The notes: generated from the sequence alone by a model not told the origin. A stretch of DNA of 43,346 nucleotides from an uncultured bacterium (GCA_964534375.1 CAZHPN010000029.1:1-43346); one strand, 5' to 3'. Positions 5,032 to 30,559 are shown, numbered from the stretch's first letter. Program-made: numbers and translations.

Positions 5032-5149
5032 CGGCGTTCCCCCTCGGCAAGCGGGCCGGGTTGTCCGGCAAAACCAAAGCAAAACACTCAAGAATCCCCT
5101 GAACGGGTAGATTATGATCGCGGCCGCGGCAATACAAGGGCGCCGCCGC

Positions 5150-5440
5150 GGCTGCACAGGTGGATGAAAACAAAGAGTTTTTGTTGTGCGCTGCCGTGCG
5201 CCATCGGGCGCAATTCGCGCTCGGTGCGCTAAGTGCTTGAAAACAAAGACTTTGCGGGAGTGCTCGCGCAGACGGGTCGAAAAACGCGCGCGGCGGGACA
5301 TCTAAGTATGTGAAAACAAAGCGTTTGCGGGAGTGGCGGGAGTGTGCGGGAGTCGAGAAAAAGCACTCCCGCCGCCTAACTATTTGAAAATACTGGGAAA
5401 ATACAGATTTGGCGGGAGTGGCGGGAGTGTTTCCCTATGC
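5150..5440. repeat. Degenerate tandem repeat array with a 73-bp period. Units begin near 5155, 5228, 5301 and 5373 with TGAAAACAAAG(nn)TTTG (a CAAAG-nn-CTTTG mini-palindrome). They are followed by 1-3 copies of GCGGGAGTG.
   Basis: Read directly. TGAAAACAAAG occurs at 5155, 5228 and 5301, exactly 73 bp apart. TTTGAAAATAC occurs at 5373. GCGGGAGTG occurs at 5244, 5318, 5327, 5337 (variant), 5402 and 5411. Confidence 0.7.
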
Positions 5441-10513: not shown

Positions 10514-10516
10514 GCG

Positions 10517-11830
10517 ATGTTCTGCCTGACGTACCAAAACGAACAGGAACGGGCCCGGGCCGTGGTCGCCATCGCCCGCCGTTGCCGGAAAGCGCGCACG
10601 GCTTTCGCGTTCGTCGGCACGGCGGCGCAATGCGCGGCCCTTCGGCCGGAGGTCAAACGGCTCTCGGCGCCGGTGCACCGGAGCGTGACCTACTGCGCCA
10701 CGGAACTCGCCGTGATCGCGCACAGTCATGCCGCGCTGAACGAGGCGATCGGCGCGTTGCGCACGACCTTGCTCGAACTGTCGGCCGACGGCCGCCCGCT
10801 GGTGGTCTGGGTCGATTCGCCGCTCATGCCCGCCGGCGCCGCGCATGCCGGCGCGATGTGGGTCTACCGCAACGCGGTCGACGATTTCGCGGCCCTGGCG
10901 CGGTTGCGCATCGTCAACGCCTATCGCTTCGCCGAGGTCGCGCCGGCGGTGCGCGCCAATTTGTTCGAGGTGGCCAACGCGGTCATCAGCGCCCGCTCCG
11001 TTTTCCCGCTCTGTCCGCCGTGGGTGATCGAAGCGCCGGCTGAACCGCGCCGCGACAATTCCCGGGTCGCCGGCGCGGCGGCGCCGGGGGCCGGCTTCGG
11101 CTTCGGTTCGTTGCTGCAGGCGGAAAAGCTGGCGACGATCGGGCAGATGGCCGCCGGCTTCGCGCACGAACTGGGCAATCCGCTGTCGGTTATCAGCTCC
11201 AGCATTCAGCATTTGCAACAACGGTTCGAGGCCGCCGGCGATCCGGAGCGCGAATTCGCGACGCTGGCCTTGCAAAACGTCGAGCGGATGCAGGGCCTGC
11301 TGCAGAACATTCGCGAGGCGGCGGGCGTGCGCGAACGGCAATTCCAGGCCGTCGAACTCAAAGAAGTCGTGGCGGAAGTGCTGCGCTTCGCGGCGGCGGA
11401 ATTTCGCCGGCGCGGCGTCGCGGTCCAGGTCCGGTTCGATGCGGCGTTGCCGCGCGTCTTCGTGGATCCCAGCGGCGTGAAACAGGTGTTGCTCAACGTG
11501 GTCCGCAATGCGCTCGACGCCATGAACGGCGGCGGCGGCGCGTTGCGCGTGCACGCGTCGTGGTCGCGGGACAAGAACGCGGCCGTCGTGAAAATTGCGA
11601 ACAACGGCCCGGCGATCGCCGCGGCGGATTTGCCCTGCATGTTCCGGCCGTTTTTTACGACGAAGAAAGAAGGGACCGGCCTCGGCCTTTTCCTGTCGCG
11701 AAAAATCGCGCGGGAGCATGGCGGCGACCTGGCGGCGGAAAACGTGCCGGGCGGCGTGCGCTTCGTACTGACGCTGCCGCGGGATCCCCGCGAAAGGGAC
11801 GATCATGGCCAACATACTAATTGTGGATGA
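10517..11830 (+). CDS. Cytoplasmic sensor histidine kinase (HisKA + HATPase_c) with an uncharacterised N-terminal domain
   Basis: The H-box is 'AAGFAHELGNPLSVI'. The N/G boxes are 'LLNVVRNALDAM' and 'FFTTKKEGTGLGLFLS'. No hydrophobic TM segments are seen. The 3' end overlaps the NtrC-type regulator by 26 nt. Confidence 0.8.
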   Translation: MFCLTYQNEQERARAVVAIARRCRKARTAFAFVGTAAQCAALRPEVKRLSAPVHRSVTYCATELAVIAHSHAALNEAIGALRTTLLELSADGRPLVVWVDSPLMPAGAAHAGAMWVYRNAVDDFAALARLRIVNAYRFAEVAPAVRANLFEVANAVISARSVFPLCPPWVIEAPAEPRRDNSRVAGAAAPGAGFGFGSLLQAEKLATIGQMAAGFAHELGNPLSVISSSIQHLQQRFEAAGDPEREFATLALQNVERMQGLLQNIREAAGVRERQFQAVELKEVVAEVLRFAAAEFRRRGVAVQVRFDAALPRVFVDPSGVKQVLLNVVRNALDAMNGGGGALRVHASWSRDKNAAVVKIANNGPAIAAADLPCMFRPFFTTKKEGTGLGLFLSRKIAREHGGDLAAENVPGGVRFVLTLPRDPRERDDHGQHTNCG

Positions 11831-13211
11831 CGAACCGAATCTGTGCCGGCTGCTGACGATGCTGCTGCGCGAGCACGGGCACCGGGCGCGGTACGTGCTG
11901 TCGGGCGAGGATGCGCTGACCGCCGCGGCCGAACACGTCCCCGATCTCGCGCTGCTCGACTTGAACATGACCGGCATGGACGGCATGGAAACGCTGCGGC
12001 GGCTGAAACGCCAGGCCCCCGAACTCCAGGTGGTCATCATGTCGGCCGTCGGCGACCTGAGCGTGGCCGTGCGGGCGATGAAACAGGGCGCCGTCGATTT
12101 CCTTTCCAAACCGTTCGACAACAAGGCGTTGCTGTCCACGATCGACACTCATCTGGCCAACCGTAGCGAGGCCCCCCCGGACTCGCCGTTGCTCATAGGA
12201 CAGAGCCCTACCTTCCTGACCGCCGTCGACGAGGCGCGCAAATTCGCGCCGCCCGACATCAACGTGCTGCTGCTTGGCGAGACCGGCACGGGCAAGGAAC
12301 TCTTCGCGAAGACGATCCACGCTTGCAGCAAACGGCGCAACGGACCGTTCGTGGCGATGGACTGCTCGATGCTCGCCGAGAACCTGTTCGAGAGCGAACT
12401 GTTCGGCTATGAAAAAGGGGCCTTCACCGGCGCCGACACGTCGCGTATCGGCCGGCTGGAGCTGGCCCAGGGCGGCACGCTGTTCCTGGACGAAATCGGC
12501 AATCTGCCGCTGGCGTTCCAGGCGAAGATGCTGCGCGTTCTACAGGAGCGCCGCATGGTGCGCGTCGGCGGGCGCAAGACGATCGCCCTGGATGTGCGGC
12601 TGATCTCGGCGACCAATGTCAATGTCAAAGAAGCGGTCCAGGCGGGCCGGTTCCGGCAGGATCTCTTTTATCGGCTGCAGGAAGTCGCGATCAACCTGCC
12701 GCCGCTGCGCGAACGTCCCGGCGATGTGCGGCTGCTCGCGGAACGTTTCGTCGCGACCTACGCCAAGGCCTTCCAGGCCCCGGTGGCCTCGATCTCGCCG
12801 GAGGCGCTCCGGACGCTGGAATCGCATCCGTGGCCGGGCAATGTCCGCGAACTCGAAAATGCGATGAAGTCCGCCGTGGTGCGGGCCGCGGACATTATGC
12901 GCCGCGAGGATCTGCCGCCCGAGATTCAGGGGGAGTGTGCGGCGCCCGCCGCTTCGGCCCCGGCGTCCGCGCCGATCGGCCGGCGCCAGCGGCTGCTCGT
13001 GGAAATCGAATACGAACTCGACGCGCTGGGCGTCGACTTGAAAGCGATCGGCGCGCAAGCGGCCGAGCGGGCGGAAAGCCAGGTGCTGCAGGATTTGTCG
13101 AAGCGCGTGCGCGTCGCGGGCAGCCGCCTGGCGAAAATGGTCAACGTCGACCCCAAGACGTTGCGGACCAAGCTGCGCAAATACGGTCTCGAAACTCACG
13201 GAATATCATAA
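11805..13211 (+). CDS. Sigma-54-dependent response regulator (NtrC family enhancer-binding protein)
   Basis: The receiver reads '[14 protein letters not shown]' and '[13 protein letters not shown]'. The AAA+ sigma-54 interaction domain reads '[12 protein letters not shown]' and '[15 protein letters not shown]' (GAFTGA). A C-terminal HTH is present. Confidence 0.85.
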
Positions 13212-14280: not shown

Positions 14281-14380
14281 TCGCGGGACAGCCGCGCGCC
14301 GTGCGCGGCTGCCAATGCGGGCGCGGGCCGGGCGAAACCAGAAAGCGGAGCGACGGCGGCGTCGCGAAAGGAAAGGGACG

Positions 14381-15412
14381 ATGAACGGAAACGGCGAACA
14401 ACCCAATGTCGTAGCTCTCATGGACATCGCGTCGCCGACGGGCATGGCCGTCGAACCGAGCGAGGACTTCGTTCAAACTCCCGCGGTGCGGCAGTTGGCG
14501 AACCGGGCTCTCGCCTATCTCAAAGCGGGATACCCGGTTCATTTCTCCGGCCCGACGGGAACGGGAAAAACGACGCTGGCGCTGCACGTGGCGGCGCTGC
14601 GCGGCCGGCCGGTCACGCTGATGCACGGCGACGACGAGTTCAGCTCCAGCGACCTGGTCGGCGGCGAATACGGATATCGCAAAAGCAAGCTGATCGACAA
14701 CTTCATTCACTCGGTGGTCAAAACGGAAGAAAGCGTCAACACGCTGTGGACGGACAATCGGCTGACGCTGGCCTGCCGGGCCGGCGACACGTTGGTGTAC
14801 GACGAATTCACGCGCTCGCGGCCGGAAGCGAACAACGCGCTGCTCTCGGTGCTCGAGGAGCGGTTGCTCTCGCTGCCCAAACGGATGCCGCGCGCGGACG
14901 GTTATATGGAAGTCCATCCGGATTTTCGCGCGATCTTCACGTCGAATCCGGAGGAATACGCCGGCGTCCATCGCACGCAGGACGCGCTGCTGGACCGCCT
15001 GATCACCATCAAGGTCGATTATTTCAATCGCGATACGGAGGTGGAAATTACCCGCATGAAATCCGGACTGACCTTGGCGGAAGCCGTGATGATCGTGGAT
15101 GTCGTGCGCCAGTTGCGCGATATGGGGTTGACCAAGCAAGGGCCGAGTCTGCGCGCCTGCATCATGATCGGCCGCATCGCGGCTCAGCAGGGCGCGCACG
15201 CCCGGCGCGGCGACACGGTGTTCTCCGAAATCTGCCACGACGTGCTGGGCGGCCTGGCGCCGCGGGTCGTGCACGACGGCAAAAAGGGCATTCACTCGAT
15301 GATCGACGAAATCATCGCCAAGTGCGCCAAGGACGAGCGGCGGCCCGTGCGGGAAATCGCGGTCGGCGACAACGGGACGGCGATCGCCGTGAAGAAGGAG
15401 CAGCGGTCATGA
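14381..15412 (+). CDS. gvpN: Gas vesicle protein GvpN (MoxR/CbbQ-like AAA+ ATPase)
   Basis: The Walker A motif is 'FSGPTGTGKTTLALHVA' and the Walker B region is 'TLVYDEFTRSRPEANNALLSVLEER'. The size and position after gvpA are as expected. Confidence 0.85.
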   Translation: MNGNGEQPNVVALMDIASPTGMAVEPSEDFVQTPAVRQLANRALAYLKAGYPVHFSGPTGTGKTTLALHVAALRGRPVTLMHGDDEFSSSDLVGGEYGYRKSKLIDNFIHSVVKTEESVNTLWTDNRLTLACRAGDTLVYDEFTRSRPEANNALLSVLEERLLSLPKRMPRADGYMEVHPDFRAIFTSNPEEYAGVHRTQDALLDRLITIKVDYFNRDTEVEITRMKSGLTLAEAVMIVDVVRQLRDMGLTKQGPSLRACIMIGRIAAQQGAHARRGDTVFSEICHDVLGGLAPRVVHDGKKGIHSMIDEIIAKCAKDERRPVREIAVGDNGTAIAVKKEQRS

Positions 15413-15777: not shown

Positions 15778-16029
15778 ATGAGCATCAAATTAAATTGTCT
15801 GGCCTGCGGACACACGCTGACGCTCGGCGACGCGTACGAGGACTTCACCGGCGAGGTTCATTGCTGGGGCTGCCACACGCTGCTGGAAATCGCGTTGGTG
15901 GACGGCCGGCTCCGGTCGATCCGGCGGGCGGGAACCGGCGGCGCCGCGCTGGCCGCGCCCGCACACGAACAACCGGCGGAGCCGCAAGCGCCGCTGCCGC
16001 GGGATGGCGAGGCGGGTTATGGCGAATAA
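15778..16029 (+). CDS. Small zinc-ribbon protein (CxxC ... CxxC)
   Basis: 'MSIKLNCLACGHTLTLGDAYEDFTGEVHCWGCHTLLEIALVDG' has a GGGGA SD upstream. The C-terminal half is low-complexity. It overlaps the gvpF start. Confidence 0.4.
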   Translation: MSIKLNCLACGHTLTLGDAYEDFTGEVHCWGCHTLLEIALVDGRLRSIRRAGTGGAALAAPAHEQPAEPQAPLPRDGEAGYGE

Positions 16030-16783
16030 AGGGCTTTATCTCTACGGCCTGATTCGCGCGGACGACCAGCGGGAGTTCGGCTGCATCGGCTTGGCCGACG
16101 AAGGCGCGCCGGCGCTGGTGACGTCGATTTGCATCGCCGGGGTCTGCGCCGTGGTCAGCGACTGCGGGACGCAAAAAATCATGCCGTTGCGGAAGTATCT
16201 GGATCCCTATCATCGGGTGATCCAGGAAGTGATGAAAACGGCGACGATCATCCCCATTCGTTTCGGGCACGTCGCCAGAAACCGCGACGCCATCGCGACG
16301 ATGTTGAAGCACAACCGCGACACGATCCGCGAAGGTCTCGACCGGGTCGCCGGCTGCGTCGAAATGGGGCTGAAGGTGAAATGGGATGTGGACAACATCT
16401 TCGAACATTTCATCGGCATCGACGCGGAACTGGCCGCCTTTCGCGACGAGATCTTCGGCCGGTCGCAGGCGCCGAGCCTGGCGGAAAAAATCGAGCTGGG
16501 CCGGCTCTTCGCGGAGCGGCGGGCGAAGGAACGCGAGCGGGAGACGGAGCGGGTCATCGAACAGTTCCAGGGGTTTTCCGCCGACGTGAAATCGAATACC
16601 CCCAAGAACGAAACCGTCGTCATGGATCTCGCCTTTTTGGTGGCCCGCGACGCGATGAAGACGTTCGAGGAGCGGGTGTATCAAGTGGCGGCGACGTTCC
16701 CGTCGCACTATCTGTTCGACTACACGGGGCCGTGGGCGCCGTTCAACTTCGTGGACCTGGATCTGCAAACGCCGGACGATTGA
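16019..16783 (+). CDS. gvpF: Gas vesicle protein GvpF/GvpL family
   Basis: The N-terminus 'GLYLYGLIRADDQREFGCIGL' is typical of GvpF/L. The length, about 255 aa, also fits the family. Confidence 0.8.
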   Translation: MANKGLYLYGLIRADDQREFGCIGLADEGAPALVTSICIAGVCAVVSDCGTQKIMPLRKYLDPYHRVIQEVMKTATIIPIRFGHVARNRDAIATMLKHNRDTIREGLDRVAGCVEMGLKVKWDVDNIFEHFIGIDAELAAFRDEIFGRSQAPSLAEKIELGRLFAERRAKERERETERVIEQFQGFSADVKSNTPKNETVVMDLAFLVARDAMKTFEERVYQVAATFPSHYLFDYTGPWAPFNFVDLDLQTPDD

Positions 16784-16792
16784 GGGGACGCC

Positions 16793-17023
16793 ATGGGCAT
16801 CATCAACGCGTCGGTGCGCGGGCTGTTTCGCGTGTTCGATGAGGTCGCCGATCTCGCCGAAAAAGAACTGTACGACGAGGACGGGGTCAAAAACGAACTC
16901 ATGGAAATCTACAAGAATCTCGAAGCCGGCGTGCTCGACGAAGAAGAGTTCGAACGCCGGGAAGCCCGTTTGGTCGAGCGGCTGGGCGAGATCGAGGAGC
17001 GGCAGAAATCGAGGGGTCGATGA
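16793..17023 (+). CDS. gvpG: Gas vesicle protein GvpG
   Basis: The 76-aa product 'FRVFDEVADLAEKELYDEDGVKNELMEIYKNLEAGVLDEEEFERREARLVERLGEIEE' matches the GvpG pattern (ELYDE ... EEEFE...LLERL). Confidence 0.75.
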   Translation: MGIINASVRGLFRVFDEVADLAEKELYDEDGVKNELMEIYKNLEAGVLDEEEFERREARLVERLGEIEERQKSRGR

Positions 17024-17605
17024 CGACGAGAATCGCCGGCGGCGTGTGGCGCCGCGGCGGCCGGCCGGCGCTGGCGCAGCCCGGCGACGAAGGACCGTGG
17101 CGCCGCGGAGGACGGCGTCCGACGCCGCACGGCGTGCGCGCCAAACGCCGGATCGGGCGGCGCGCGCCGTTTCATCCGGGCGACCCGCGGTTTGAGATGT
17201 TTCTGGATGGCGCGTGAATCGTCGGTTCCGCAACGCGACACGAGAGGTTGGGACGACATGAGAAAGCGGCCCGCGATCGGCGGCAAAACCAGCAACGCAA
17301 CAGCGCGCGGCGGCAACCAACCGCCTCGCGCCGTGCGATCGCCCGCGCACCACGACGGCTTGCTCGACGCCGGCGCCTCGGACGACGCGTTCGTCGCGCT
17401 CGAACGCTGCCTGGAACGGATTCCGGTCGGGAGTTGGGCGGGCATGGTGATCGTCCGGCGCACAGAGCCGAACGCGATGAGCCGGGCGCGCGAAGGCAGC
17501 CGGCAGCCGGCGCCCGGCGACGCGTACCGCAGTTGTTTCCCGACGCGTCCGCCGCTCGCGCCGGCGGCGGCGGGCGATGCGCAGGGCGCCCTCGGGAGAA
17601 TCGTG

Positions 17606-18865
17606 ATGTTGCTGCGGGCGCGCACCGGGCACGATTTCTCGCTGTACAAGAAACGGACGCTTTACTACCGCGTCGAGCGGCGGATGGAACAACATCAAAT
17701 TGACACCGTGGGGTCGTACGCGGCGTTCCTGGCCGGCGATCCGCAGGAATTGGATATTCTGTACAAGGAAATGTTGATCGGCGTGACGGGCTTTTTCCGC
17801 GACCCGGCGGCGTGGGAGGCGTTGAAATCTCACGTACTGCCGGCGCTGATCGCGAGCCGGCCGGCCGGCACGACGTTGCGCGTCTGGGCGCCCGGTTGCT
17901 CGACCGGCGAAGAGGCGTACTCGCTGGCCATTGTGTTTCAGGAGGCATTCGAAAACATCGCCCCGCGCAAGAACCAGGCGGTGCGGATTTTCGCGACGGA
18001 TTTGAATCGCGACGCGCTGCAGATCGCCCGCCGCGGATTTTACCCGCGCGAGATCGCGGCGGCGGTTTCGCCCGAACGGTTGCGGCGGTTCTTTCCCGAG
18101 GAGCCAGACGGCTATCGGGTGGCGGCGGAACTGCGCACGCCCGTCGTCTTTATGGTTCACAACGTGATCATGGATCGCCCGTTCGCCCAAATGGATCTGT
18201 TGATTTGCCGCAACCTGCTGATTTATCTCGACCCCCGCCTGCAAAAGAACCTCCTGACCATGTTCTGGCAGACCCTGAATCGGGGCGGCTTCCTTTTCCT
18301 CGGCCCCGCCGAATCGGTCAGCGGCGCGCGCGACCTGTTCACGCCGGCGCAGCGGCCGGCGAAGCTGTTTCAACGCGTCGAAATCAGTGCGCCGGCGCGA
18401 CTGGCGCCCCTCGCACCCGCCGTGCAGCGGCTGCCGTTCGGCGCCGGCGAGTCGGCCATTTTGCGGCTGGAGAGCGGCGGCGCCGCCGACCGTTCCCGCG
18501 CGCAGACCACGCGCGTGATTCCCGTCGCCTACGGCCGCGAAGATCGCCTGCTCGCCGACATTACGGCGGACTGGGCGTATCCGGAATTGGCGGCCGACGT
18601 GCGCCTGGCCTTTCAAAACGGCGCGCCCACGGACCGGGAGATCGACCTGCCCGACGGCCGGCGCTGGACCGCGCGCATCACGCCCTGGAACGTGCCCGGG
18701 CGCCAGCTCGACGCGGTCGTCGTCGCCGTGCGCGAAACGACAGCCATGCAATTGATGGAGCGGGAGCTGCGCGCGGCGGAAACGCGGCAACGGCAATTCC
18801 CGCACGCGGCGGCGGAACGCGGCGGCGAACGGCCCGCGGACGCGCGCGAGGGGGGCCGGCCGTGA
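17606..18865 (+). CDS. cheR: CheR-type protein-glutamate O-methyltransferase with a C-terminal PAS-like extension (stand-alone, not fused to CheB)
   Basis: The CheR_N region reads 'LLRARTGHDFSLYKKRTLYYRVERRM'. The SAM-binding region reads 'GFFRD...LRVWAPGCSTGEEAYSLAI...LLICRNLLIYLD'. A GGGAGAA SD lies 5 nt before the ATG at 17606. An N-terminal extension to 17477 cannot be excluded. Confidence 0.8.
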   Translation: MLLRARTGHDFSLYKKRTLYYRVERRMEQHQIDTVGSYAAFLAGDPQELDILYKEMLIGVTGFFRDPAAWEALKSHVLPALIASRPAGTTLRVWAPGCSTGEEAYSLAIVFQEAFENIAPRKNQAVRIFATDLNRDALQIARRGFYPREIAAAVSPERLRRFFPEEPDGYRVAAELRTPVVFMVHNVIMDRPFAQMDLLICRNLLIYLDPRLQKNLLTMFWQTLNRGGFLFLGPAESVSGARDLFTPAQRPAKLFQRVEISAPARLAPLAPAVQRLPFGAGESAILRLESGGAADRSRAQTTRVIPVAYGREDRLLADITADWAYPELAADVRLAFQNGAPTDREIDLPDGRRWTARITPWNVPGRQLDAVVVAVRETTAMQLMERELRAAETRQRQFPHAAAERGGERPADAREGGRP

Positions 18866-20586
18866 CCTCGGGCAAGCGGGCGATGTCGGATTTCAACACG
18901 CTGCGGCGGCGCGCCGAGGAGAAGTTGCGCGAACACCGCCACGTCGCGGCCGGCGGCGCGCTGGACGACGAAACGCAGAATTTGCTGCGCGAACTGCAGG
19001 TCCATCAGATCGAACTGGAATTGCAGAATGAAGAGTTAATCGGCTCGCGCGAGGAGCTCGAACGCACGCTGGAACGGTTCACCGACCTGTTCGACCGCGC
19101 GCCGGTGGGCTATTTCGCCATCGATCGCGAGGGCGTAATCCGGCAGGCGAACCTGACCGGCGCGACGCTGCTCGGCGTGGAGGCGCCCTTGCTGGCGAAC
19201 CGGCCGTTTGCGCAATTCGTCGTCGCGGAGGCGCGGCCGAGATTCGCCGTCTTTCTCCGGACGGTTTTCGACAAGCGGACGCGCCGCTTGTGGGAAACAT
19301 CGTTGCTGCGGCCGGGCAAGCGGCCGCGGTTCGTGCGCCTCGAGGCGACCGTTCCGGAGACGGGCGGCGAGTGCCGGCTGGCGGCGCTGGACATCACCGC
19401 CCGGCGGCGAATGGAGGAAGCGCTCCGGAAAAGCGACGAGAAATATCGGCTGATCGCGGAAAACGTAATGGACGTGATTTGGACCGCGGATTTGTCGCTG
19501 AACATTCAATATATCAGTCCGGCGGTCCTGCGCATGCGCGGGTACAGCGTCAGCGAAGCCCGGCGGCAGGCGCCGGAAGAGATCTTCCCCGCGTCGTCGT
19601 TGGAGATGTTGAATGGTCTGCTCGCCGCGGAATGGGAAAAAGATGCGCGGCCGCCGGCCGACCCCGCCGACGTGCGCACGATCGAGTTGGAACAGTACTG
19701 CAAAGACGGTTCGACCATCTGGACCGAATGTCAATTCGGTTTCCTGCGCGACGAAGACGGCCGGCCGCAGGGGATTATCTGCGTCACGCGCAACATCACC
19801 GAACGGCGGCGGGCGCAAGCGGAACGGTTGACGATGGAAGCGCAATTGCGCCATCAGCAAAAGCTCGAGTCCATCGGCACGCTGGCCAGCGGCGTCGCGC
19901 ACGAAATCAACAATCCGCTGATGGGCATCATGAACTTCGCCGAGTTGATTCAGACCCAGGACATGCCGCGGGTCAAAGTCGAGGATTTCGCCCGCAAGAT
20001 CGTCGCGGAAAGCGCGCGGGCGGCGAAAATCGTCCGCAATTTGCTGGCGTTTTCGCGGCAGGACAGCGAGGAACACAGCCCGGCGCTGATCGACACCGTC
20101 ATCCGCTCGACCTTGTCGTTGATCGAAACCGTGCTGCGCAACGAGGAAATCAAGGTCACAGTGGACGTGCCGGACGGGCTGCCGGCGATCCGCTGCCGGA
20201 GCCAGCAGATTCAGCAAGTGATCCTGAATCTGGTGACCAATGCCCGCGACGCGTTGAACGAGCGATATCCGGGCCGGGATCCCGACAAGACCCTGGCGAT
20301 CCGCGCCCGGCAAATGGAAAAGGACGGCGCGCCGTGGATTCGCACGGTCGTCGAAGACCACGGCGTCGGCATGGCCGCAAAAACAATGGCCCGGATATTC
20401 GATCCTTTTTTTTCCACCAAGCCGCGCCATCTGGGCACCGGCCTCGGGTTGTCCGTCAGTCACGGAATTATCCGGGAGCACGGCGGCAATTTATGGGTGG
20501 ACAGCAGACTGGGTGAATTTTCGCGGTTCTACGTGGACCTGCCGGTCGACAACGGCTGGCGGCTGGACCGCGACCGAACCGTGTGA
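18862..20586 (+). CDS. PAS/PAC sensor histidine kinase with an N-terminal 'LQxHQIELELQNEEL' coiled-coil motif, translationally coupled to cheR (GTGA overlap)
   Basis: The N-terminus is 'LLRELQVHQIELELQNEELIGSREELERTLERFTDLFDRAPVGYFAID'. Two PAS domains follow. The H-box is 'SGVAHEINNPLMGI', the N box is 'LNLVTNARDAL' and the G box is 'FFSTKPRHLGTGLGLSVSHGII'. Confidence 0.8.
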   Translation: MTSGKRAMSDFNTLRRRAEEKLREHRHVAAGGALDDETQNLLRELQVHQIELELQNEELIGSREELERTLERFTDLFDRAPVGYFAIDREGVIRQANLTGATLLGVEAPLLANRPFAQFVVAEARPRFAVFLRTVFDKRTRRLWETSLLRPGKRPRFVRLEATVPETGGECRLAALDITARRRMEEALRKSDEKYRLIAENVMDVIWTADLSLNIQYISPAVLRMRGYSVSEARRQAPEEIFPASSLEMLNGLLAAEWEKDARPPADPADVRTIELEQYCKDGSTIWTECQFGFLRDEDGRPQGIICVTRNITERRRAQAERLTMEAQLRHQQKLESIGTLASGVAHEINNPLMGIMNFAELIQTQDMPRVKVEDFARKIVAESARAAKIVRNLLAFSRQDSEEHSPALIDTVIRSTLSLIETVLRNEEIKVTVDVPDGLPAIRCRSQQIQQVILNLVTNARDALNERYPGRDPDKTLAIRARQMEKDGAPWIRTVVEDHGVGMAAKTMARIFDPFFSTKPRHLGTGLGLSVSHGIIREHGGNLWVDSRLGEFSRFYVDLPVDNGWRLDRDRTV

Positions 20587-20599
20587 AGAGGAGCGCGCC

Positions 20600-21724
20600 A
20601 TGCCGCGAATTTTGATCGTCGACGACGAACCGAACATCTGCGAAGCGATCGGCGAGTTTCTGCGCAACGACGGCCATGACGTCATGACGGCGCCGGACGG
20701 CGCGGACGCGCTGGCCGCCTTGACCGCGCAGCATTTCGACGTCGTGGTCACCGACATCATCATGCCGCGCTTTTCGGGCATCGAACTGCTGCACCGGATT
20801 AAAGATTCGGATCCCGAGGTGCAGGTGATTGTGGTGACCGGCGAGCCGACGCTGGAAACGGCTTCGACGGCGTTCCGCGAGCATGCGTTCGACTATCTGC
20901 CGAAGCCGGTCAGCGGCAAAGTGCTGCGGCAAGCCGTCGCCAACGCGTGCAAGCTGAAGGCGCTGGGCGAAGAAAAAAAGCGGCTCGAGGCCGAGAACGA
21001 CAAGTATCGCGAAGAACTGGAAAAGTTGGTCGAGGCCCGCACCGGCGAAGTCCTGCGCGCCAATCAACGGCTGCAGGAGTCGCTGATCTGCCTGCGCGAA
21101 AATCTGGACGACAGCACCCGCGCGATGTCGATCATGATCGAAAAGCGCGATCCGTACACCGCGGGGCACCAGGCGCGCGTCGCCCAGCTCGCACTGGCGA
21201 TGGCGACCGCGATGAATCTCGGGGAAAACGAAATCGCGTCGGTCCATACGGCGGCGCTGCTGCACGACGTGGGGAAGATTTGCGTTCCCGTCGAGATTTT
21301 GTCGAAGCCGGCGAAATTGAACGACGCGGAAATCACGTTGATCCAATGCCATTGCGAAGCGTCGTTCGAAATCCTGCGCACGATCCGGTTTCCCGGCCCG
21401 ATCGCGACGATCGCCGGCCAGCACCACGAACGGTGGAACGGCTCGGGGTATCCGGCGGGACTGCCGGGCAAGGAAGTCCTGCACGAGGCGCGGATCATCG
21501 CCGTGGCCGATGTCGTCGAGGCGATGACGCACCATCGGCCGTTTCGGCCGGCGCAGGGCGTTGCCGCGGCGCTTTCCCACATCACGGAAGCCGCCGGCGT
21601 GCTCTACGACCCGGACGTGACGGCGGCGTGCGTCGACACGTTCCGCGCGGGTTTTTCATTCAACGGCGGCTCGGCCGACATGCCGGGCCGGTACGGCGCC
21701 GATCTGAGCTGCCGCAACAATTGA
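20600..21724 (+). CDS. Response regulator with an HD-GYP domain (c-di-GMP phosphodiesterase class)
   Basis: The receiver reads '[14 protein letters not shown]' and 'VVVTDIIMPRFSG'. The HD-GYP domain reads 'AALLHDVGKI' and 'HHERWNGSGYPAGL'. A GAAGAGGAG SD lies upstream. Confidence 0.8.
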   Translation: MPRILIVDDEPNICEAIGEFLRNDGHDVMTAPDGADALAALTAQHFDVVVTDIIMPRFSGIELLHRIKDSDPEVQVIVVTGEPTLETASTAFREHAFDYLPKPVSGKVLRQAVANACKLKALGEEKKRLEAENDKYREELEKLVEARTGEVLRANQRLQESLICLRENLDDSTRAMSIMIEKRDPYTAGHQARVAQLALAMATAMNLGENEIASVHTAALLHDVGKICVPVEILSKPAKLNDAEITLIQCHCEASFEILRTIRFPGPIATIAGQHHERWNGSGYPAGLPGKEVLHEARIIAVADVVEAMTHHRPFRPAQGVAAALSHITEAAGVLYDPDVTAACVDTFRAGFSFNGGSADMPGRYGADLSCRNN

Positions 21725-21727
21725 CGG

Positions 21728-22156
21728 ATGGCAAACATCTTTCCGGGGGGAAACAAATTGACCACGCCGACGAATCTGCGACCGATGCGGGACCGCGGGA
21801 GCAAGGAATCCCTGGCCGACGCGATCGAAGTCATTCTCGACAAAGGGTTGGTGATCAACGCCGACATCACCGTGTCCGTGGCCGGCGTCGAGCTCCTCGG
21901 CATCAAAATCCGCGCGGCGCTGGCCTCGTTCGCCACGGCGGCCAAATACGGATTGGAGTTCCCGTCGGGGACCAACATCGAAACCTCCGCCTGGCGGCAG
22001 GCGCAGTCGGGCGACGAGTCTTGTCCGCAGTGCGGCAAACATTCCGCGACCGAAGAACTGCTCAATGACGGCTGCCCGTGGTGCGGCTGGCAAAGCGCGC
22101 GGGCGAGGGCGGTTGCGCCGGCGCCGCTGCCGCTGCCGATCGCCGGCAGTCAATGA
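21728..22156 (+). CDS. gvpJ: GvpJ/GvpM-type (GvpA-like) protein with a C-terminal zinc-ribbon extension
   Basis: The GvpA-like core is 'SLADAIEVILDKGLVINADITVSVAGVELLGIKIRAALASFATAAKYGL'. The C-terminus 'CPQCGKHSATEELLNDGCPWCG' is a CxxC...CxxC ribbon. The start may be the Met at 21785. Confidence 0.7.
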   Translation: MANIFPGGNKLTTPTNLRPMRDRGSKESLADAIEVILDKGLVINADITVSVAGVELLGIKIRAALASFATAAKYGLEFPSGTNIETSAWRQAQSGDESCPQCGKHSATEELLNDGCPWCGWQSARARAVAPAPLPLPIAGSQ

Positions 22157-22258: not shown

Positions 22259-23230
22259 ATGGAGCCAGTGCGCGAGGCGAAAGCCACCGTCACGGACCTG
22301 CTCGATCGGTTGTTGGAAACCGGCGTCATTCTCGATTTGGACATGATCATCGGCATCGCCGGCGTGCCGTTGATCGGGGTCAGTCTGCGCGCCGCGATCG
22401 CGGCCATCGAAACGATGATCGAGTACGGGTTCATGCAGACATGGGACGAAAACACGCGGCGCTACGCCGAGCGCGAATTGCAGAGCAAACGTTTGCCGTT
22501 TGGGCGGGACGAACGCACGCTGGTGGAAATGTTCGGTTCGCATTGGTCGGCCGACGGCATCCAGCGGGCGTGGCGGCCCGGCCGGTTGTTCGTGACCAAT
22601 CAACGCTTGATCCTGTATCGGCGGATGCCCGCCGAGGTCCTGTTCGAGGCTCCGTTGGGACGCATCGCCGGCCTCGCGACCGGTGAGAGCGTGCGCTTCG
22701 ACGGGCGACGCGTCCCGCTCTTGCACATCACGTTGGACGACGGCGCCGCCGCGTCGTTCTACGCCGAGGATCTCGACGGCCTGCGGTCGGCGTTGGAAGA
22801 GCAATTGGCGGCGATGGGCGTGGCCGTCACCGCAACGAGCGAGGCCTGGGGTCAGGATTGCGAAGCGGCCGACGCGATGCCCGGCGCGCAGATCCTGGCC
22901 AAGGGCATGATGTGGCGGCAGGAATCCGGCGCGCCAGGGATCGCGGCCGAATGGCGCCCGGGAATTCTCTATTTGACCGACAAGGGGTTGCTCTGGTGGT
23001 CGCAGAACCGCCGGCGTCTGGAACTGCGCATCGCGGCCTCGTCGATCCTGGGCGTGACCGCGGAGACCCATGAAAAAAGCGCGTTGCTGCCCGAGAGTTC
23101 GATGCTGGTCGTGCGCTGGATGGGCCAGGACGCCACGATGACCAGCTTGTTCACTGGGAAAGCCGTCGAAGAGTGGCGTCGCGCGATTCGCCGCGTGGCG
23201 GTCGATGACAAAAGTGGAGCAGCGTCATGA
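22259..23230 (+). CDS. GvpJ/GvpM-like N-terminal domain fused to two PH/GRAM-like domains
   Basis: The N-terminus '[48 protein letters not shown]' is GvpA-like. Two repeats follow: '[35 protein letters not shown]' and '[35 protein letters not shown]'. These resemble bacterial PH/GRAM-like beta-sandwich domains; the domain call is by pattern, not by search. Confidence 0.55.
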
Positions 23231-23547
23231 TCGATGTCGACGAAGGGAACTTGAAGCAAGGTCTGCTGGGCCTGGTGATCGCCTTGGTCGAAGTGATCAA
23301 GGACGCGCTGGCGACGCAGGCCTTCCGGCGGATGGAAAACGGGCATTTGACCGACGCCGAGGTCGAGCGGCTCGGCGCCGCGCTGGCGGATTTGGACGTC
23401 GTGCTGGCGCAGATCAAAGAAGAACACGGCGTCGCGGAGGCGGTTCAACAGGTGCGCGACAGCCTCGACGATCTGGTCGGCGACGTGGTCGACCGCCTGT
23501 CGAATCCCGGCCGTTGGCCGGAAGCGGCCGAGCCGCTGTCGTCGTGA
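23227..23547 (+). CDS. gvpK: Gas vesicle protein GvpK
   Basis: '[57 protein letters not shown]' matches the GvpK pattern (LVLTVVELLRQLMEAQAIRRMEAGSL...). There is an ATGA overlap with the upstream gene. Confidence 0.8.
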
Positions 23548-23600
23548 ACGAATGCGGGGGGAATCCCCCACGCGTGTTCCGCTGGGGACGGAAGGCAACG

Positions 23601-26600
23601 ATGGATATTCGCCGGAAGAACGGAGGCCGCGCGGCGCGTATTTTCTACCTGATCTTCGTTCTTTTTGCCGCGGGCATCGTCGCCGGCGGCTACCTCTACT
23701 TCCATTACTATGAAAAGCACTACCGCATTGAGGTCGAGCATCAGCTTTCGGCCATCGCAGAACTGAAGGTGAGCGAACTGGCGCGGTGGCGCCAGGAAAG
23801 GTTGGCGGACGCGGCCGTCTTTTATCGGAACGACGCGTTCGCCGCGCTCGTGCGGCGTTATTTCGAGAAGCCGGACGATGCGGCAACGCAAGCGCAACTC
23901 GGGGCCTGGCTGGCGCATTTTCAGCAGGCGGAGCACTACGACGCGGTGATGTTGCTGGACAATCAATACGTCGGAAAGATGATTTTTCCCGCCGGACCGG
24001 AGCGCGGGCTCGCCTTCGTTTCTCCGGGCGTCGCGGCGACCCTGCAAGCGGGCCAGGTGGCCTTTGAGGATTTTTACCGCGACGAGCAGAACCGGCGAAT
24101 CTACCTGAAAACCATGATCCCGATTTTCGATGAACCGGACGGCGGCCGGCGTCTGGGCTGCCTGGCGCTACGAATCGATCCCACAACGTATCTCTACCCA
24201 TTTATCCAGCGCTGGCCGCTGCCCGGTCGCACCGCGGAAACGTTGCTCGTTCGCCGCGAAGGAAAGGACGTACTCTTCCTGAACGAGCTCAAATTCGCCG
24301 CCGACGTGGCGCTCACGCGGCGCATCCCGCTGGCGAGACAAGACGTGCTCGCCGTCAAGGCCGTCGCCGGACACCAAAGCATCGTCGAGGGCCTGGACTA
24401 CCGGAACGTGCCGTCGATCGGCGCGGTGCGGGCCGTTCCGGATTCGCCGTGGTTCCTCGTCGCGCGCATGGACACCGCCGAGGTGTATGCGCCGCTGCGC
24501 GGCCGGCTGTTGGCGACCGTGATCGTGGCGTGCCTGCTGCTCGTGTGTTCCGCCTTTGGCGCCGGCCTGGTCTGGCGGCAACGCGACGCCGCATTCTATC
24601 GGGCGCAATGCCAGTCGGACGAAGCCTTGCGGGAAAGTGAAAAAAAATTGCGCAGCTATATCGACAATGCGCCCGACGGGGTGTTTGTCGCCAACGAACT
24701 CGGCCACTACTTGGAGGTCAATCCGGCAGCCTGCGAGATGACCGGCTACTCCCGCGAAGAACTGACAAAATTGAATTTCATGGAGCTGGTTCCTCCGCAC
24801 GCAAAGGAAGCCGCTCGGCAGGCGTTTGCATCGGTCGCGCGGACCGGCAAGACGCGCGTCGAAATACCATTTCTTCGCAAAGACGGCCAAAGCCGTTTCT
24901 GGAGCGTCGACGCCGTCAAGCTGACGGATTCGGGATACCTCGCTTTTACCAAGGATACCACGGCACGCCGACGCGCCGAGGAAGAGCTGCGGGCGAGCGA
25001 AGGGAAACTGCGCAGCTATATCGACAATGCGCCGGACGGAGTTTTTGTCGCCAACGAACTCGGCAACTATTTGGAGGTCAATGCAGCAGCCTGTGAGATG
25101 ACCGGCTACTCCGGCGAAGAACTGACGAAAATGAATCTCATGGAACTGATTCCTCCACACGGAAAAGAAGCCGCGCAAAAGGCTTTTGAAGCGGTCGCGC
25201 AAACCGGCAAAATCCGCGTCGAAATTCCGTTTCTTCGCAAAAACGGCCAAGGCGGTTTCTGGAGCGTCGACGCCGTCAAGTTGACGGATTCGAGATACCT
25301 CGCATTTACCAAGGACATCTCGGCACGCCGACGCGCCGAGGAAGATCTGCGGGAGAGCGAAAGGAAATTGCGCAGCTATATCGACAATGCGCCCGACGGG
25401 GTTTTTCTCGCCAACGAATTGGGCAACTACGTCGAGGTCAATGCGGCGGCATGCGCGATCACCGGTTACTCCCGCGAAGAACTCCTGCAGATGAATCTGA
25501 TGGATCTCGTGCCGCCGGAAGGAAGAGACGCCGCGCGGCAGTCCTTCGAGGACGTCGTGCACACGGGCAAAACCAGCGTCGAATTTCCCGTCGTCCGCAA
25601 AAACGGCGAAGTCTTTTTCTGGAGCGTCGATGCGGTGAAATTGTCCGATACGCGATTTCTCGGATTCAAGAAGGACATCACCGCGCGCAAACGCGCCGAA
25701 GAGGCGCTGCGCGACAGCGAAGCCCGCTTTCGGGTGCTGTTCGACAGTTCCCACGACGCGATGATGATCCTGGAGCCGCCGCTCTGGAATTTCACCTCCG
25801 GGAACCCGGCGACGATCGCGATGTTCAAAGCCAAAGACAGCCGCGAATTCGAGTCGTACGGTCCGGCCGGGCTGTCTCCGGAACGCCAGCCGGACGGCCG
25901 CGCCTCCGCCGAAAAAGCGCGGGAGATGATCGACACAGCGATGCGGGAGGGCTCCCACTTTTTCGAGTGGACGCACCGGCGGGTCGACGGCGAAGATTTC
26001 TCGGCTACGGTCCTGCTCAGCAAGATCGAGTTGGCCGGGAAACCGATGCTGCAAGCGACGGTGCGGGATATTTCGGCGCAAAAACGCGCCGAGGAGACGT
26101 TGCGTCAGACGACTGAGCGGGCCAACCAAATGGCCGTCGAGGCGCAGGCGGCCAATATCGCCAAGAGCCAGTTCCTGGCCAACATGAGCCACGAAATCCG
26201 CACGCCGATGAATGGCGTCATCGGTATGACCGGCTTGCTGTTGGACACCGAGCTATCCGAGGAACAGCGCCGCTACGCCGAGACGATCCGCTCCAGCGGC
26301 GATTCGTTGCTGCGCGTGATCAACGACATTTTGGATTACTCGAAAATCGAAGCGGACAAGTTGGAATTGGAGACGCTCGATTTCGACCTGCGGGCGACGT
26401 TGGAGGACACGGCCGAACTGCTGGCGCTGCGCGCCTGCGACAAAAACCTCGAATTCGTTTGCCGCATCGATCCGACGACGCCGACTTTCCTGCGCGGCGA
26501 TCCCGGGCGTTTGCGCCAGATCCTCGTCAATCTGGGCGGCAACGCAATTAAATTCACCCAGAAAGGCGAGGTGGAAATCGACGTCCGGCCGGAGGCCGAA

Positions 26601-28109
26601 ACCGCCGAGCGGTTTACCGCCCGCTTTGCGGTGCGCGACACCGGCATCGGCGTTCCGGCCGACAAAATCGGGCTGCTGTTCAATGCCTTTCAACAGGTGG
26701 ACGCGTCCACTACGCGCTTGTTCGGCGGCACGGGGCTCGGGTTGGCCATTTCCAAACAACTGGTCGAGCAGATGGGCGGCGCGATCGGCGTGGAAAGCGT
26801 CGCAGGCCAAGGGACGACCTTCTGGTTCACTGCGGTTTTCGACAAGCAACCGCGGCGCGAAGACCGCGAGGATGCGCCGCGCGCCGACGTGCGCGGCATG
26901 CGCATTCTGGCCGTCGACGACAACGACACCAACCGCCTGGTGCTGGCGGAGCAACTGGCGTCCTGGGGCGTCCGCCACACCGAAACCGACAGCGCTCCCG
27001 AGGCGCTGCGGCTGATGCGCGCCGCCTGCGCCGAGAGCGACCCATTCCGCATTGTGGTTACGGATATGCAAATGCCGGCGATGGACGGCGAGGCGCTCGG
27101 CCGCGCCGTCAAGGCCGATCCCGAGTTGCGCGACACGCTGCTGGTGATCATGACGTCGCTCGGTCGCCGCGGCGACGCGAAACGGCTGGAGGCGATCGGC
27201 TTCGCGGCGTATTTGACCAAGCCGGTCAGACAGTCGCAATTGTACGATTGCCTCGCCACCGTGCTGGGCCGCGTGCCGACAACCGCCCAGGCCGACCCCG
27301 CACTGGTCACGCGCCACACGCTGGGCGAACTGCGCCGGCGAAAAGTTCGCATTCTGTTGGCCGAGGACAACGCCACCAATCAACAGGTGGCGCTCGGCAT
27401 CCTTGAAAAACTGGGTTTCCACGCCGACGCCGTGGCCGATGGGGAGGAAGCGATCCGCGCGCTCGAAAGCAATCCATATGATCTCGTTTTCATGGACGTG
27501 CAGATGCCGGTCATGGACGGCTTCGCGGCGACGCGCGCGATTCGTTCCGGCAAGACAAAAATAGCCAATCCGAAAATTCCCATTGTCGCGATGACGGCCC
27601 ACGCGATGAAGGGCGACCGCGAGCGCTGCCTGGCCGAAGGCATGGACGACTATGTGTCGAAACCGATCGGTTCGCAGGCGCTGGCCGAGGCGCTCGACCG
27701 CTGGCTCGGCCGCGTTTCCGACAAACGGCCGCCGCTCCACGTTTTCGCCAAAGCTCTGGACGCTGGCGAGGGGCCGCTTGTTTTCGACCGCGCGGCCCTC
27801 ACGGCGCGCCTCATGGGCGACGAGGATCTGCTCGCGGAAATCGTCGCGGGATTTCTCGGCGACATGCCCCGACAGATCGGCGAACTCCGAGCCTGCGTCG
27901 AACGGTCGGAGGCGGTGTCGGCGGCGAACCAGGCGCACACAGTTAAAGGCGCGGCGGCCAACGTGGGCGGCCTCGCCCTGAGCGCGGCGGCGCTGGCGAT
28001 CGAGAAATCCGTCAAAGCCGGCGATTGGGAAGAGAGCGCCGCCCTGTTGCCGGAGTTGGAGCGGCAGTTCGAATTGTTGCGGGCGGAGATGCCGGAGGCC
28101 GGTCGATGA
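23601..28109 (+). CDS. Large hybrid sensor histidine kinase (about 1500 aa). The domain order is an N-terminal extracytoplasmic sensor domain flanked by TM segments, 3 tandem near-identical PAS domains plus a fourth PAS, HisKA, HATPase_c, 2 receiver domains and a C-terminal Hpt domain.
   Basis: The start is the ATG at 23601, from '[34 protein letters not shown]', which contains TM1. TM2 is '[23 protein letters not shown]'. The H-box is '[15 protein letters not shown]' and the G box is '[19 protein letters not shown]'. The receivers read '[10 protein letters not shown]...[12 protein letters not shown]' and '[10 protein letters not shown]...[12 protein letters not shown]'. The Hpt domain reads '[13 protein letters not shown]'. 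The longer ORF from 23205 overlaps gvpK in another frame and is rejected. Confidence 0.85.
24620..25700 (+). repeat. Three in-frame tandem repeats of 360 bp (120 aa) inside the hybrid kinase, each encoding a PAS domain
   Basis: TTGCGCAGCTATATCGACAATGCGCCCGACGG recurs at about 24648, 25008 and 25368. The protein repeats ('[13 protein letters not shown](V/L)ANELG.Y(L/V)EVN.AAC..TGYS.EEL...N.M.L.PP....') appear about 80-90% identical to each other by eye. Confidence 0.8.
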
Positions 28110-29734: not shown

Positions 29735-30559
29735 ATGAGCCAATCGACGTACGAGCCCGTAAAGTCAGAACCGGTCGGAAGATATGTGTATTGCGTCGCC
29801 GCGGGCGAACTCGGCCCGCCGCCCGTGCCGGGGCTCGACAGTTGCCCCGTGCGCGCCGTGTCGGCCGCCGGCCTCACCGCGTTTCTGCACGACTGCGCGG
29901 CGGCGCCGTATCGCGGCGACGACGAAAAGGTCGCCGCGTGGGTGGTCGCGCACGGCGAAGTGGTCGACGCCGTTTGGGACAAAATCGACCCGGTGCTGCC
30001 GCTGGCGTTCGACACCATTATTCGCCCGGACGACGGTTTGGACGGCGACGAGCAGGTTCGGCGCTGGCTGGCGATGGAGAAGGACCGCTTTGGCGCGCTG
30101 CTCGATTCGTTGCGCGGCAAAGTCGAGCTCGGCGTTCAAGTCTTCTGGATTTCCAACGTGGTCGGCGCCGCCGTCGCCGAGGGCGACGAAGAGATTTGCC
30201 GGTTGCGCGCCGAGATGGCCGGCAAGCCCAAGGGCATGGCCTACTTTTACCAGCAGAAAATCGAGCGCGCATTGCGGCGGGCGCTCGAAATTCGCGCCGA
30301 GGCCGATTACCGCCTGTTTTTCCGGCAGATCGCCTTTCTTTGTCCGGAAGTGCGCCTCAACAAGGTGCGCAAGGCGCCGGAGCGGCAGATGATTCTCAAC
30401 GTGTCGGTGCTGGCGCCGCGCGAACAAGTCGCCGAGTTGGGCGACGTCGTCGCGGGGTTTCAAAAGACGGCCGGGGTGGAAGTGCGCTTTACGGGCCCGT
30501 GGCCGCCGTACAGTTTTGTGCGGCCGAAACCGAACCCGGCGCCGGTCGAGGAGAATTAG
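29735..30559 (+). CDS. gvpL: Gas vesicle protein GvpL/GvpF family (second paralogue)
   Basis: The N-terminus 'RYVYCVAAGELGPPPVPGLDSCPVRAVSAAGLTAF' is typical of GvpF/L. It is 274 aa with a GGAGGTGA SD. Confidence 0.75.
   Translation: MSQSTYEPVKSEPVGRYVYCVAAGELGPPPVPGLDSCPVRAVSAAGLTAFLHDCAAAPYRGDDEKVAAWVVAHGEVVDAVWDKIDPVLPLAFDTIIRPDDGLDGDEQVRRWLAMEKDRFGALLDSLRGKVELGVQVFWISNVVGAAVAEGDEEICRLRAEMAGKPKGMAYFYQQKIERALRRALEIRAEADYRLFFRQIAFLCPEVRLNKVRKAPERQMILNVSVLAPREQVAELGDVVAGFQKTAGVEVRFTGPWPPYSFVRPKPNPAPVEEN

Follow-up and report, generated by a model that had tools for sequence, protein, structure and literature searches.

A CheB-CheR-family methyltransferase gene and its partner PAS kinase in a gas-vesicle gene cluster: a possible protein-methylation system without chemoreceptors

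High-abundance chemoreceptors carry a C-terminal pentapeptide tether of the NWETF type (PMC7390727), and the CheR-TPR enzymes FrzF and WspC, which are encoded in clusters with a methyl-accepting chemotaxis protein (MCP), CheA and CheW, methylate an MCP (PMC3447774, PMC2535941). CheR of Salmonella is also reported to methylate a non-chemoreceptor, the response regulator PhoP, at EE/ED pairs (PMC8546571). CheB/CheR fusions, another group of enzymes with a CheR domain, are annotated in thousands of genomes and metagenomes, and in searchable papers the K13924-type fusion family appears as an annotation label only. Full-text literature searches outside subscription-only journals turned up no account of the motif and gene pair described here, or of what CheB-CheR-PAS fusions do. 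These fusions lie outside chemotaxis clusters and occur in lineages generally held to have no chemoreceptors, which raises the question of their substrate. Here we analysed a stretch of 43,346 nucleotides from an uncultured bacterium (GCA_964534375.1 CAZHPN010000029.1:1-43346; hereafter the window, with positions counted from its first letter), in which a cheR gene overlaps the start of a gene for a PAS histidine kinase, kinase 1. By homology and gene order, a CheB-CheR-family enzyme has its cognate partner in kinase 1; the same core module recurs in two further kinases of the window, kinases 2 and 3. The gene pair suggests protein methylation signalling without chemoreceptors.

The cheR gene and its junction with kinase 1

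The gene pair comprises the following features, with matches given against Pfam and against the two profile hidden Markov models (HMMs) described below.

17258-18865, + strand: CheR-derived gene, 535 residues (Pfam CheR_N and CheR; gene calls on two other assemblies start at the ATG at 17258)
17348-17473, + strand: vestige of a CheB N-terminus, GASDDAFVALERCLERIPVGSWAGMVIVRRTEP (family: GASAGGLEALExFLxxVPxxSGxAxVIVQHLDP; family HMM positions 30-71, a weak match of 4.6 bits)
17567-18406, + strand: CheR_N and the S-adenosylmethionine (SAM)-binding CheR catalytic domain, intact (426 bits against family HMM positions 227-506)
18467-18796, + strand: diverged second PAS_10 (50.8 bits, E = 4e-18, family HMM positions 766-875)
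18862-20586, + strand: kinase 1, with the partner module, a second PAS, HisKA and HATPase (Pfam PAS-PAS-HisKA-HATPase; module HMM 227 bits)

The open reading frame (ORF) at 17192-18865 (+) matched the Pfam families CheR_N (54.2 bits; cut-off 27) and CheR, the SAM-binding domain (170.4 bits). A start at 17606, as given in the first-pass annotation of this DNA, is probably too far downstream, since the conserved CheR_N match begins at 17567 and gene callers use the ATG at 17258. Homologues of the encoded protein were sought in a collection of 5.8 billion proteins. The other members of its own protein cluster proved to be identical sequences that differ only in their start calls, and the closest relatives were CheB-CheR-PAS fusions, mostly of 850-930 residues and, among the best matches, of 880-930, that share 56-61% identity with it over the CheR part. 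These fusions have the layout CheB_methylest, CheR_N, CheR, PAS, coiled coil, PAS_10. CheR_N, CheR and PAS_10 were present in all of the top 119 non-self matches and CheB_methylest in all but one, and the Ser, His and Asp motifs of CheB are kept in 112-117 of these 119 family members.

A family HMM built from 45 CheB-CheR-PAS fusions matched the window protein in three collinear pieces separated by two gaps (485 bits in total), a pattern indicating that the gene is a deletion derivative of the fusion family. Family HMM positions 72-226, the CheB core with the catalytic His and Asp, are absent from the window protein, as are positions 507-765, which comprise the first PAS and the whole NEELQSTNEELQST coiled coil. 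Consistent with these gaps, Pfam gave no CheB_methylest match in the protein and a pattern scan found no NEEL string in the cheR ORF. The 42-residue CheB vestige retains the Ser of the GASxGG nucleophile motif, and this decayed N-terminus, standing in the cheR frame, is a molecular fossil that points to descent from a CheB-CheR fusion. The catalytic part is well preserved: it matches solved CheR structures (E = 1.6e-31; 5xly), the family-invariant sequences GCSTGEEAYS, FATDL and CRNLLIYL are all present, and the 535 codons contain neither a frameshift nor a stop. By these profile matches, cheR of the window is a doubly deleted derivative of a CheB-CheR-PAS fusion in which the methyltransferase and the last PAS are retained. 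The gene had been described as a stand-alone CheR-PAS methyltransferase; by its best homologues and the family HMM it is an internally deleted fusion-family member rather than an ordinary stand-alone CheR. The PAS part of that description holds for the family-specific HMM, which recognises the second PAS_10, but not for Pfam, whose own PAS_10 model gave no match in this protein.

The TGA stop codon of cheR overlaps the GTG start codon of kinase 1 as GTGA at 18862-18865. This overlap, noted in the first pass, is present in the sequence, and two other public assemblies are 100% identical to the window over 5-7.6 kb across the junction. A purine-rich, Shine-Dalgarno-like run, GAGGGGGG, lies 7-14 nucleotides upstream of the GTG, and the N-terminus of kinase 1 aligns from residue 1 with the partner proteins of other loci. 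It had been asked whether cheR and the kinase were once a single gene and whether a base error at the junction had separated them. The two ORFs do lie in different frames with a 4-nucleotide overlap, as a sequencing or assembly frameshift that split one CheR-PAS-kinase gene would have it; however, the identical DNA of the two further assemblies, the Shine-Dalgarno-like run before the GTG, the alignment of kinase 1 from its first residue and the separation of enzyme and partner into two ORFs in all 63 paired loci (see below) make such an error negligibly probable and contradict an ancestral single gene. The 4-nucleotide overlap is the normal, translationally coupled layout of an enzyme-partner pair.

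The N-terminal helix module and its conserved pairing

We examined the gene order around 80 CheB-CheR fusion loci, taking one genome per species, from Desulfomonilia, Bacteroidales, Verrucomicrobiota, Planctomycetota, Burkholderiales, Chlorobi, Acidobacteria, Myxococcota, Gemmatimonas and others; 73 of these had enough downstream sequence. A module homologous to the N-terminus of kinase 1 was encoded within 1.5 kb downstream and on the same strand in 63 of the 73 loci (86%), usually starting at -16 to +100 nucleotides from the stop codon of the fusion enzyme. In six further loci the module stood elsewhere: in five it was on the strand of the enzyme gene and no more than 6.5 kb away, and in the sixth it was on the opposite strand. 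Enzyme and module were never fused in the paired loci (0 of 63). This conserved adjacency marks kinase 1 as the canonical partner and the two-gene layout as ancestral, not the product of a frameshift. For the reverse direction, 80 metagenome contigs were picked purely by a degenerate DNA pattern for the core of the module, HELQVHQIELEMQNEEL. The motif lay 25-57 residues (typically ~42) after the first candidate start codon in nearly all contigs, and a CheB-CheR fusion stood directly upstream of the motif gene in 40 of 59 contigs with at least 1 kb of upstream sequence and in 27 of 36 with at least 2.5 kb; ~30% of consensus-motif genes had no fusion gene upstream. The coupling of cheR to a motif-bearing kinase family, proposed from the window by itself, is thus strongly backed by gene order in both directions.

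In the window, the elements of the module and the kinases that carry it are placed as follows.

18901-18927, + strand: helix 1, LRRRAEEKL (family LRxxAExxL), a possible docking element, found in the window only in kinase 1
18967-19095, + strand: long N-terminal helix of kinase 1, residues 36-78 (AlphaFold2), with the core ELQVHQIELELQNEEL at 18991-19038
18991-19038, + strand: core motif copy LLRELQVHQIELELQNEEL, kinase 1
35430-35477, - strand: core motif copy LLHELQVQQFELETQNDEL, kinase 2
41036-41083, - strand: core motif copy LLQELQIQQIEVEAQNEEL, kinase 3
31941-35612, - strand: kinase 2, a PAS-rich hybrid kinase with receiver domains (Pfam); core module at 35022-35531 (180 bits, match from module HMM position 26)
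38270-41242, - strand: kinase 3, a PAS-rich hybrid kinase with receiver domains (Pfam); core module at 40622-41131 (167 bits, match from module HMM position 28)

A regular-expression scan of all six frames found exactly three copies of the core motif ELQxxQxExExQN[ED]EL in the window, ~40-60 residues from the N-terminus of PAS histidine kinases and followed by F/Y-x-[DE]-L-[FY]-D-x-APVGY. Translation and scan together confirm the three motif-bearing PAS kinases, each with APVGY after the motif, that had been reported from the sequence at first. Chance occurrence was ruled out, there being exactly three copies, all N-terminal in kinases. Kinase 1 carries a second conserved element, helix 1, which is missing from the earlier description of the motif and whose residues L14, R15, A18, E19 and L22 are kept in 43-50 of 54 partners. 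Neither a pattern scan nor the module HMM found helix 1 (LRxxAExxL) in kinases 2 and 3, which are paralogues of each other (61% identical over the N-terminal 580 residues).

The module was defined from an alignment of 54 homologous proteins encoded next to CheB-CheR fusions. It is ~190 residues long and opens with ~13 residues that vary; helix 1 follows and is joined by a variable linker (15-20 residues) to the core-helix run, after which come the sequence Y73-T-D-L-Y-D-F-A-P-x-G-Y and a PAS domain. The near-invariant core, HELQVHQIELEMQNEEL, sits within a helix of ~40 residues, and helix 1 lies ~25 residues before it. The conserved run reads L41, H43, E44, L45, Q/E46, V47, H48, Q49, I50, E51, L52, E53, M54, Q55, N56, E57, E58, L59, and so includes surface Glu and Gln residues. 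At residue 41 and at residues 43-59 (18 of the 19 positions from 41 to 59) a single residue occupies the position in at least 33 of the 54 partners, at most of them in at least 46; position 42 is L, I or V, and position 46 alternates between Q (33 sequences) and E (13). Taken as a whole, the partner proteins share only 21-48% identity with kinase 1. Across 80 sampled loci an identical 17-residue peptide was encoded by 78 distinct DNA sequences with a GC content of 35% to 61%. This diversity shows that selection is on the protein, and it rules out a DNA or RNA element as the conserved entity.

AlphaFold2 returned a model of kinase 1 with a mean predicted local distance difference test score (pLDDT) of 86.9. 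In it, residues 3-29 form a low-confidence first helix followed by a loop, and residues 36-78 form a 43-residue helix (pLDDT 84-95 from residue 41) that is continuous with the PAS fold. A module HMM built without the window sequence scored kinases 1, 2 and 3 at 227, 180 and 167 bits, and every other PAS domain of the window at 33 bits or less. At E <= 1e-30 the module is found, nearly always at the extreme N-terminus, in up to 17,740 clusters at 50% identity, a figure to be taken as an upper limit, as the score builds up in proteins that have many PAS domains. N-terminal fragments of the kinases matched no specific Pfam or NCBIfam model, and a PDB sequence search returned no structure of the motif helix and none of a CheB-CheR-PAS protein.

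The outputs attached to the module vary. Among the 54 partners, 33 are histidine kinases and the others include GGDEF proteins and one sigma-54 activator; ~14 are the module by itself (~185 residues), mostly from Bacteroidales. In one partner, from a Myxococcota metagenome-assembled genome (MAG) (L049:4424-5827), helix 1 and the motif helix lead straight into HisKA-HATPase-REC; the protein has neither a PAS nor any other sensor domain, and its conserved helix ends ~25 residues before the phospho-accepting His box. That kinase has no input element other than its N-terminal helices.

In the Bacteroidales MAG loci L009, L013, L025, L028, L031, L033, L036 and L048, a module-only partner with no output domain is encoded just downstream of the fusion gene. 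Bacteroidales are generally held to be non-motile and to lack chemoreceptors. In the cultured Thauera phenylacetica B4P (L017:9135-12969), a complete CheB-CheR-PAS-coiled coil-PAS_10 gene (9135-11906, 923 residues) overlaps an ORF of 360 residues that encodes a module-GGDEF protein (11887-12969), a pair convenient for experiment.

The fusion loci are not chemotaxis clusters: over the 1.33 Mb that surround the fusion genes, signature motifs picked out a single MCP and not one CheA. Many of the hosts are Bacteroidales. In the 43-kb window, neither the Pfam-scanned ORFs nor signature motifs gave a CheB, CheA, CheW or MCP, which upholds the first-pass statement that the first three are missing there.

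Candidate substrates and competing readings

What the enzyme does to its partner may be drawn from these observations in more than one way. The reading that we favour, and regard as plausible rather than probable, is that the enzyme docks on its partner, methylates Glu residues of the invariant helix and thereby alters the input to the PAS/kinase part of the protein. The CheR enzyme would bind to the N-terminal part of its partner, perhaps tethered there by helix 1 and its flexible linker, and would methylate conserved Glu residues on the exposed face of the long helix, for which E51, E53, E57 and E58 are candidates. Methylation would change the packing of the helix and, through it, the activity of the PAS domain and of the dimerisation and histidine phosphotransfer (DHp)-kinase domains. 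Kinase 1 would signal to the regulator encoded next, which is likely its output:

20600-21724, + strand: response regulator with receiver and HD_5 (HD-GYP-type) domains (Pfam), starting 13 nucleotides after the kinase 1 stop

Where the system is complete, removal of the mark would fall to the fused CheB, controlled by the PAS domains of the enzyme. Only the writing half is left in the window, so methylation would here run in one direction, unless the genome has an esterase gene outside the window. As to kinases 2 and 3, they share the core helix and PAS, have no tether and may be weaker, secondary substrates. We favour methylation of the partner helix because the surface positions of the helix are conserved, including the Q/E alternation at position 46, because the L049 partner has no PAS domain, because the catalytic domain of the window CheR is intact although the coiled coil of the enzyme has been lost, and because methylation of PhoP by CheR has been reported (PMC8546571).

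Several observations weigh against this reading. Full methylation sites of MCPs follow the consensus [ASTG][ASTG]xx[EQ][EQ]xx[ASTG][ASTG]. This pattern occurred in none of the 54 partner N-termini and in none of kinases 1-3, and the MCPsignal model (PF00015) gave no match at E <= 10 to the N-terminal 101-113 residues of the three kinases. The half-site [EQ][EQ]xx[ASTG][ASTG] was not enriched in partner N-termini (0.17 per sequence vs 0.14 after shuffling), and each window kinase has one (EELIGS, EELEAS and EELRAA). The resemblance of the motif to MCP methylation sites that had been suggested for it is not borne out by any of these comparisons. Kinase 1 does have two acidic pairs, E57-E58 and E64-E65, at a heptad spacing of seven residues on a helix predicted with confidence; the second pair is only weakly conserved across the family. 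Kinases 2 and 3 lie 11 and 18 kb from cheR, on the other strand and with no CheR gene adjacent, and they are without helix 1. Among the 150 best module proteins none has CheR fused to the module, and modules in internal positions are preceded by PAS, GGDEF or receiver domains. With its two large deletions, the window enzyme may be a relic. The richness in half-sites of another element, the NEELQST coiled coil of the enzyme (~residues 670-770, in fusions P0002-P0120), which is the most methylation-like sequence of the system, points to self-modification: it holds 5.1 half-sites per protein vs 0.5 after shuffling, in heptad spacing. The fusion enzyme may, on this sequence pattern, methylate itself there.

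If so, the acceptor would be the enzyme's own coiled coil, in cis or in a dimer, the CheB-CheR-PAS protein would be a self-contained soluble receptor with adaptation, and the partner helices would bind the coiled coil and read its state. The acceptor being deleted in the window, its CheR would be a non-functional or rewired remnant and the kinase motif a docking or dimerisation helix. Besides the half-sites, which are enriched in the coiled coil and not in partner N-termini, this account can point to the heptad phase xELxxxx that partner helix and coiled coil have in common, with 44% identity over 32 ungapped columns, and to the absence of HMM positions 507-765 from the window protein. Against it, the coiled coil shows no excess of the full MCP consensus (0.05 vs 0.04), the ungapped hhalign match between the two elements is weak (probability 4.5%; no homology is claimed), and the CheR catalytic domain is intact over 535 codons, which would be unexpected if its sole substrate had been lost. 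We consider self-modification rather unlikely, though it is the main rival of the favoured reading. The same comparison bears on an earlier remark that the 'NEEL' pattern of the kinases is the one found in CheB/CheR fusions: NEEL repeats do occur in the fusions, but they make up the internal coiled coil of the enzyme, an element distinct from the kinase motif and deleted here.

It is also conceivable, and in our estimate improbable, that the partner bears no covalent mark. The motif would then be an N-terminal cap or dimerisation helix of a PAS subfamily, the pairing would reflect a complex (PAS-PAS or coiled-coil) or co-regulation, and the methyltransferase would have its substrates elsewhere. 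The AlphaFold2 model, with a single long helix running into the PAS as in many dimeric PAS sensors, agrees with this, as do the family-specific PAS core that follows the motif, the great abundance of the module and the motif genes that stand without an upstream fusion. An ordinary dimerisation helix varies at its surface, however, whereas positions 43-59 are all conserved here across phyla; the L049 partner keeps the helices and the pairing without a PAS; and if the helix were no substrate, it would be hard to see why 86% of loci encode a write/erase enzyme beside this conserved, Glu/Gln-rich element. Far less probable still is an ordinary chemotaxis CheR acting on MCPs encoded elsewhere, with an incidental position beside a PAS kinase. 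The Pfam matches to CheR_N and CheR are what such an enzyme would give, and the window is only 43 kb of a genome. Yet the protein scores 99.8 bits against the canonical CheR equivalog (NCBIfam NF007902), below its cut-off of 435, its nearest relatives are all CheB-CheR-PAS fusions, it retains the C-terminal PAS_10 and the CheB vestige of that family, and its downstream neighbour is the family's canonical partner.

Gene linkage in two directions names a concrete candidate substrate for the fusion enzymes, a nearly invariant helix of ~40 residues on a large family of PAS signalling proteins. If methylation of this helix is real, reversible glutamate methylation would be a general control of two-component and cyclic di-GMP (c-di-GMP) signalling beyond chemotaxis; if the helix is not methylated, what remains is a new, conserved protein-protein module defined by the pair. 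The window offers a natural dissection of the system, with an enzyme that lacks the esterase and its own coiled coil and keeps the methyltransferase and the partner.

Gas-vesicle surroundings and comparison with known systems

The trio of cheR, kinase 1 and regulator lies inside a co-directional gas-vesicle gene cluster (6122-30559, +). The remaining features of the cluster and of its flanks are listed here.

2539-5301, - strand: PFL-like glycyl radical enzyme (536 bits, with a Gly_radical domain), upstream of the gas-vesicle cluster
6122-6898, + strand: Hsp20/GvpH-like gene
8324-10513, + strand: CDC48-type AAA gene
14315-15412, + strand: AAA_5 GvpN-like gene
16004-16783 and 29735-30559, + strand: GvpL/F, two copies
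16793-17023, + strand: GvpG
21728-22156 and 22259-23230, + strand: GvpA/J family genes
23205-28109, + strand: hybrid kinase of 1634 residues (three PAS, HisKA, HATPase, two receivers, Hpt), followed by an overlapping receiver-GGDEF ORF
30571-31944, - strand: sigma-54 activator with no receiver-domain match (Pfam); its start overlaps the kinase 2 stop by 4 nucleotides
35829-36485, - strand: receiver-LuxR regulator (Pfam), after the PAS-HisKA_3 kinase
36537-38273, - strand: PAS-HisKA_3 kinase (Pfam); its start overlaps the kinase 3 stop by 4 nucleotides

Genes for receiver, kinase, NtrC-type, receiver-GGDEF and giant hybrid kinase proteins are interleaved with the gas-vesicle genes in unusual number, which suggests elaborate sensory control of buoyancy. 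The first ~480 residues of the 1634-residue hybrid kinase matched no Pfam family, and a scan for promoters and terminators between 15400 and 23300 gave no more sites than shuffled sequence. The glycyl radical enzyme points to an anaerobic lifestyle. The best named relatives of the CDC48-type ATPase are from Deltaproteobacteria MAGs and Myxococcota (73-78% identity). A further locus (L203; ERZ28654467 scaffold_65, 101630-123777) encodes an 82% identical CDC48-type ATPase and has the Hsp20-REC-CDC48-histidine kinase-NtrC block in common with the window; within 10 kb it contains no cheR and no motif-bearing kinase, and the signalling content of the cluster thus appears to be evolutionarily fluid.

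Set in these surroundings, a wider reading can be phrased, which we offer as speculation and consider doubtful as a whole. CheB-CheR-PAS enzymes and the LRxxAExxL / HELQVHQIELEMQNEEL module would form a widespread, chemoreceptor-independent system in which a sensor-regulated methyltransferase/esterase sets and removes methyl groups on the input helices of kinases, diguanylate cyclases and sigma-54 activators; here a methyltransferase-only derivative would set the activity of up to three kinases, acting on c-di-GMP and sigma-54 outputs that may control buoyancy. Were this true, methyl-accepting signalling proteins would fall into two classes, the second being these partners, found even where cells are non-motile, as in Bacteroidales.

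The adaptation system of CheR, CheB and MCPs in E. coli and Salmonella shares with the pair described here homologous CheR_N and CheR domains, along with CheB_methylest in the parent family, and in both the target, here a candidate one, is a long helix, rich in Glu and Gln, where a histidine kinase pathway takes its input. It differs in its company, since no MCP, CheA or CheW was found in the window and a single MCP in the 1.33 Mb around relatives. It differs also in the candidate target, the N-terminal helix of a PAS kinase that matches neither MCPsignal nor the methylation consensus, and in the esterase, which in the parent family has no receiver domain and is fused to the methyltransferase and in the window is missing. 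The closest annotated relatives are the CheB/CheR fusions (KEGG K13924; 'two-component system CheB/CheR fusion protein' at JGI), with 56-61% identity in CheR, a collinear layout and the same downstream partner; unlike them, the window CheR is without the CheB core, the first PAS and the NEELQST coiled coil.

As in FrzF and WspC, which control non-flagellar outputs including kinases and c-di-GMP enzymes, CheR is combined with an extra regulatory domain (PMC3447774, PMC2535941), whereas here the accessory domains are PAS and there is no MCP cluster. The PhoP case is a precedent for CheR modifying adjacent acidic residues of a two-component protein (PMC8546571), and it differs from the window pair in involving the canonical chemotaxis CheR, no dedicated gene pair and no conserved target helix. 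Helix 1 may be likened, by analogy only, to the NWETF tether, being short, conserved and separated by a variable linker of 15-20 residues from the candidate substrate helix. The parallel would extend to its distribution, in that the kinase encoded next to the enzyme, kinase 1, has helix 1 and the unlinked kinases 2 and 3 do not; unlike the NWETF tether, helix 1 is N-terminal, helical and unrelated in sequence.

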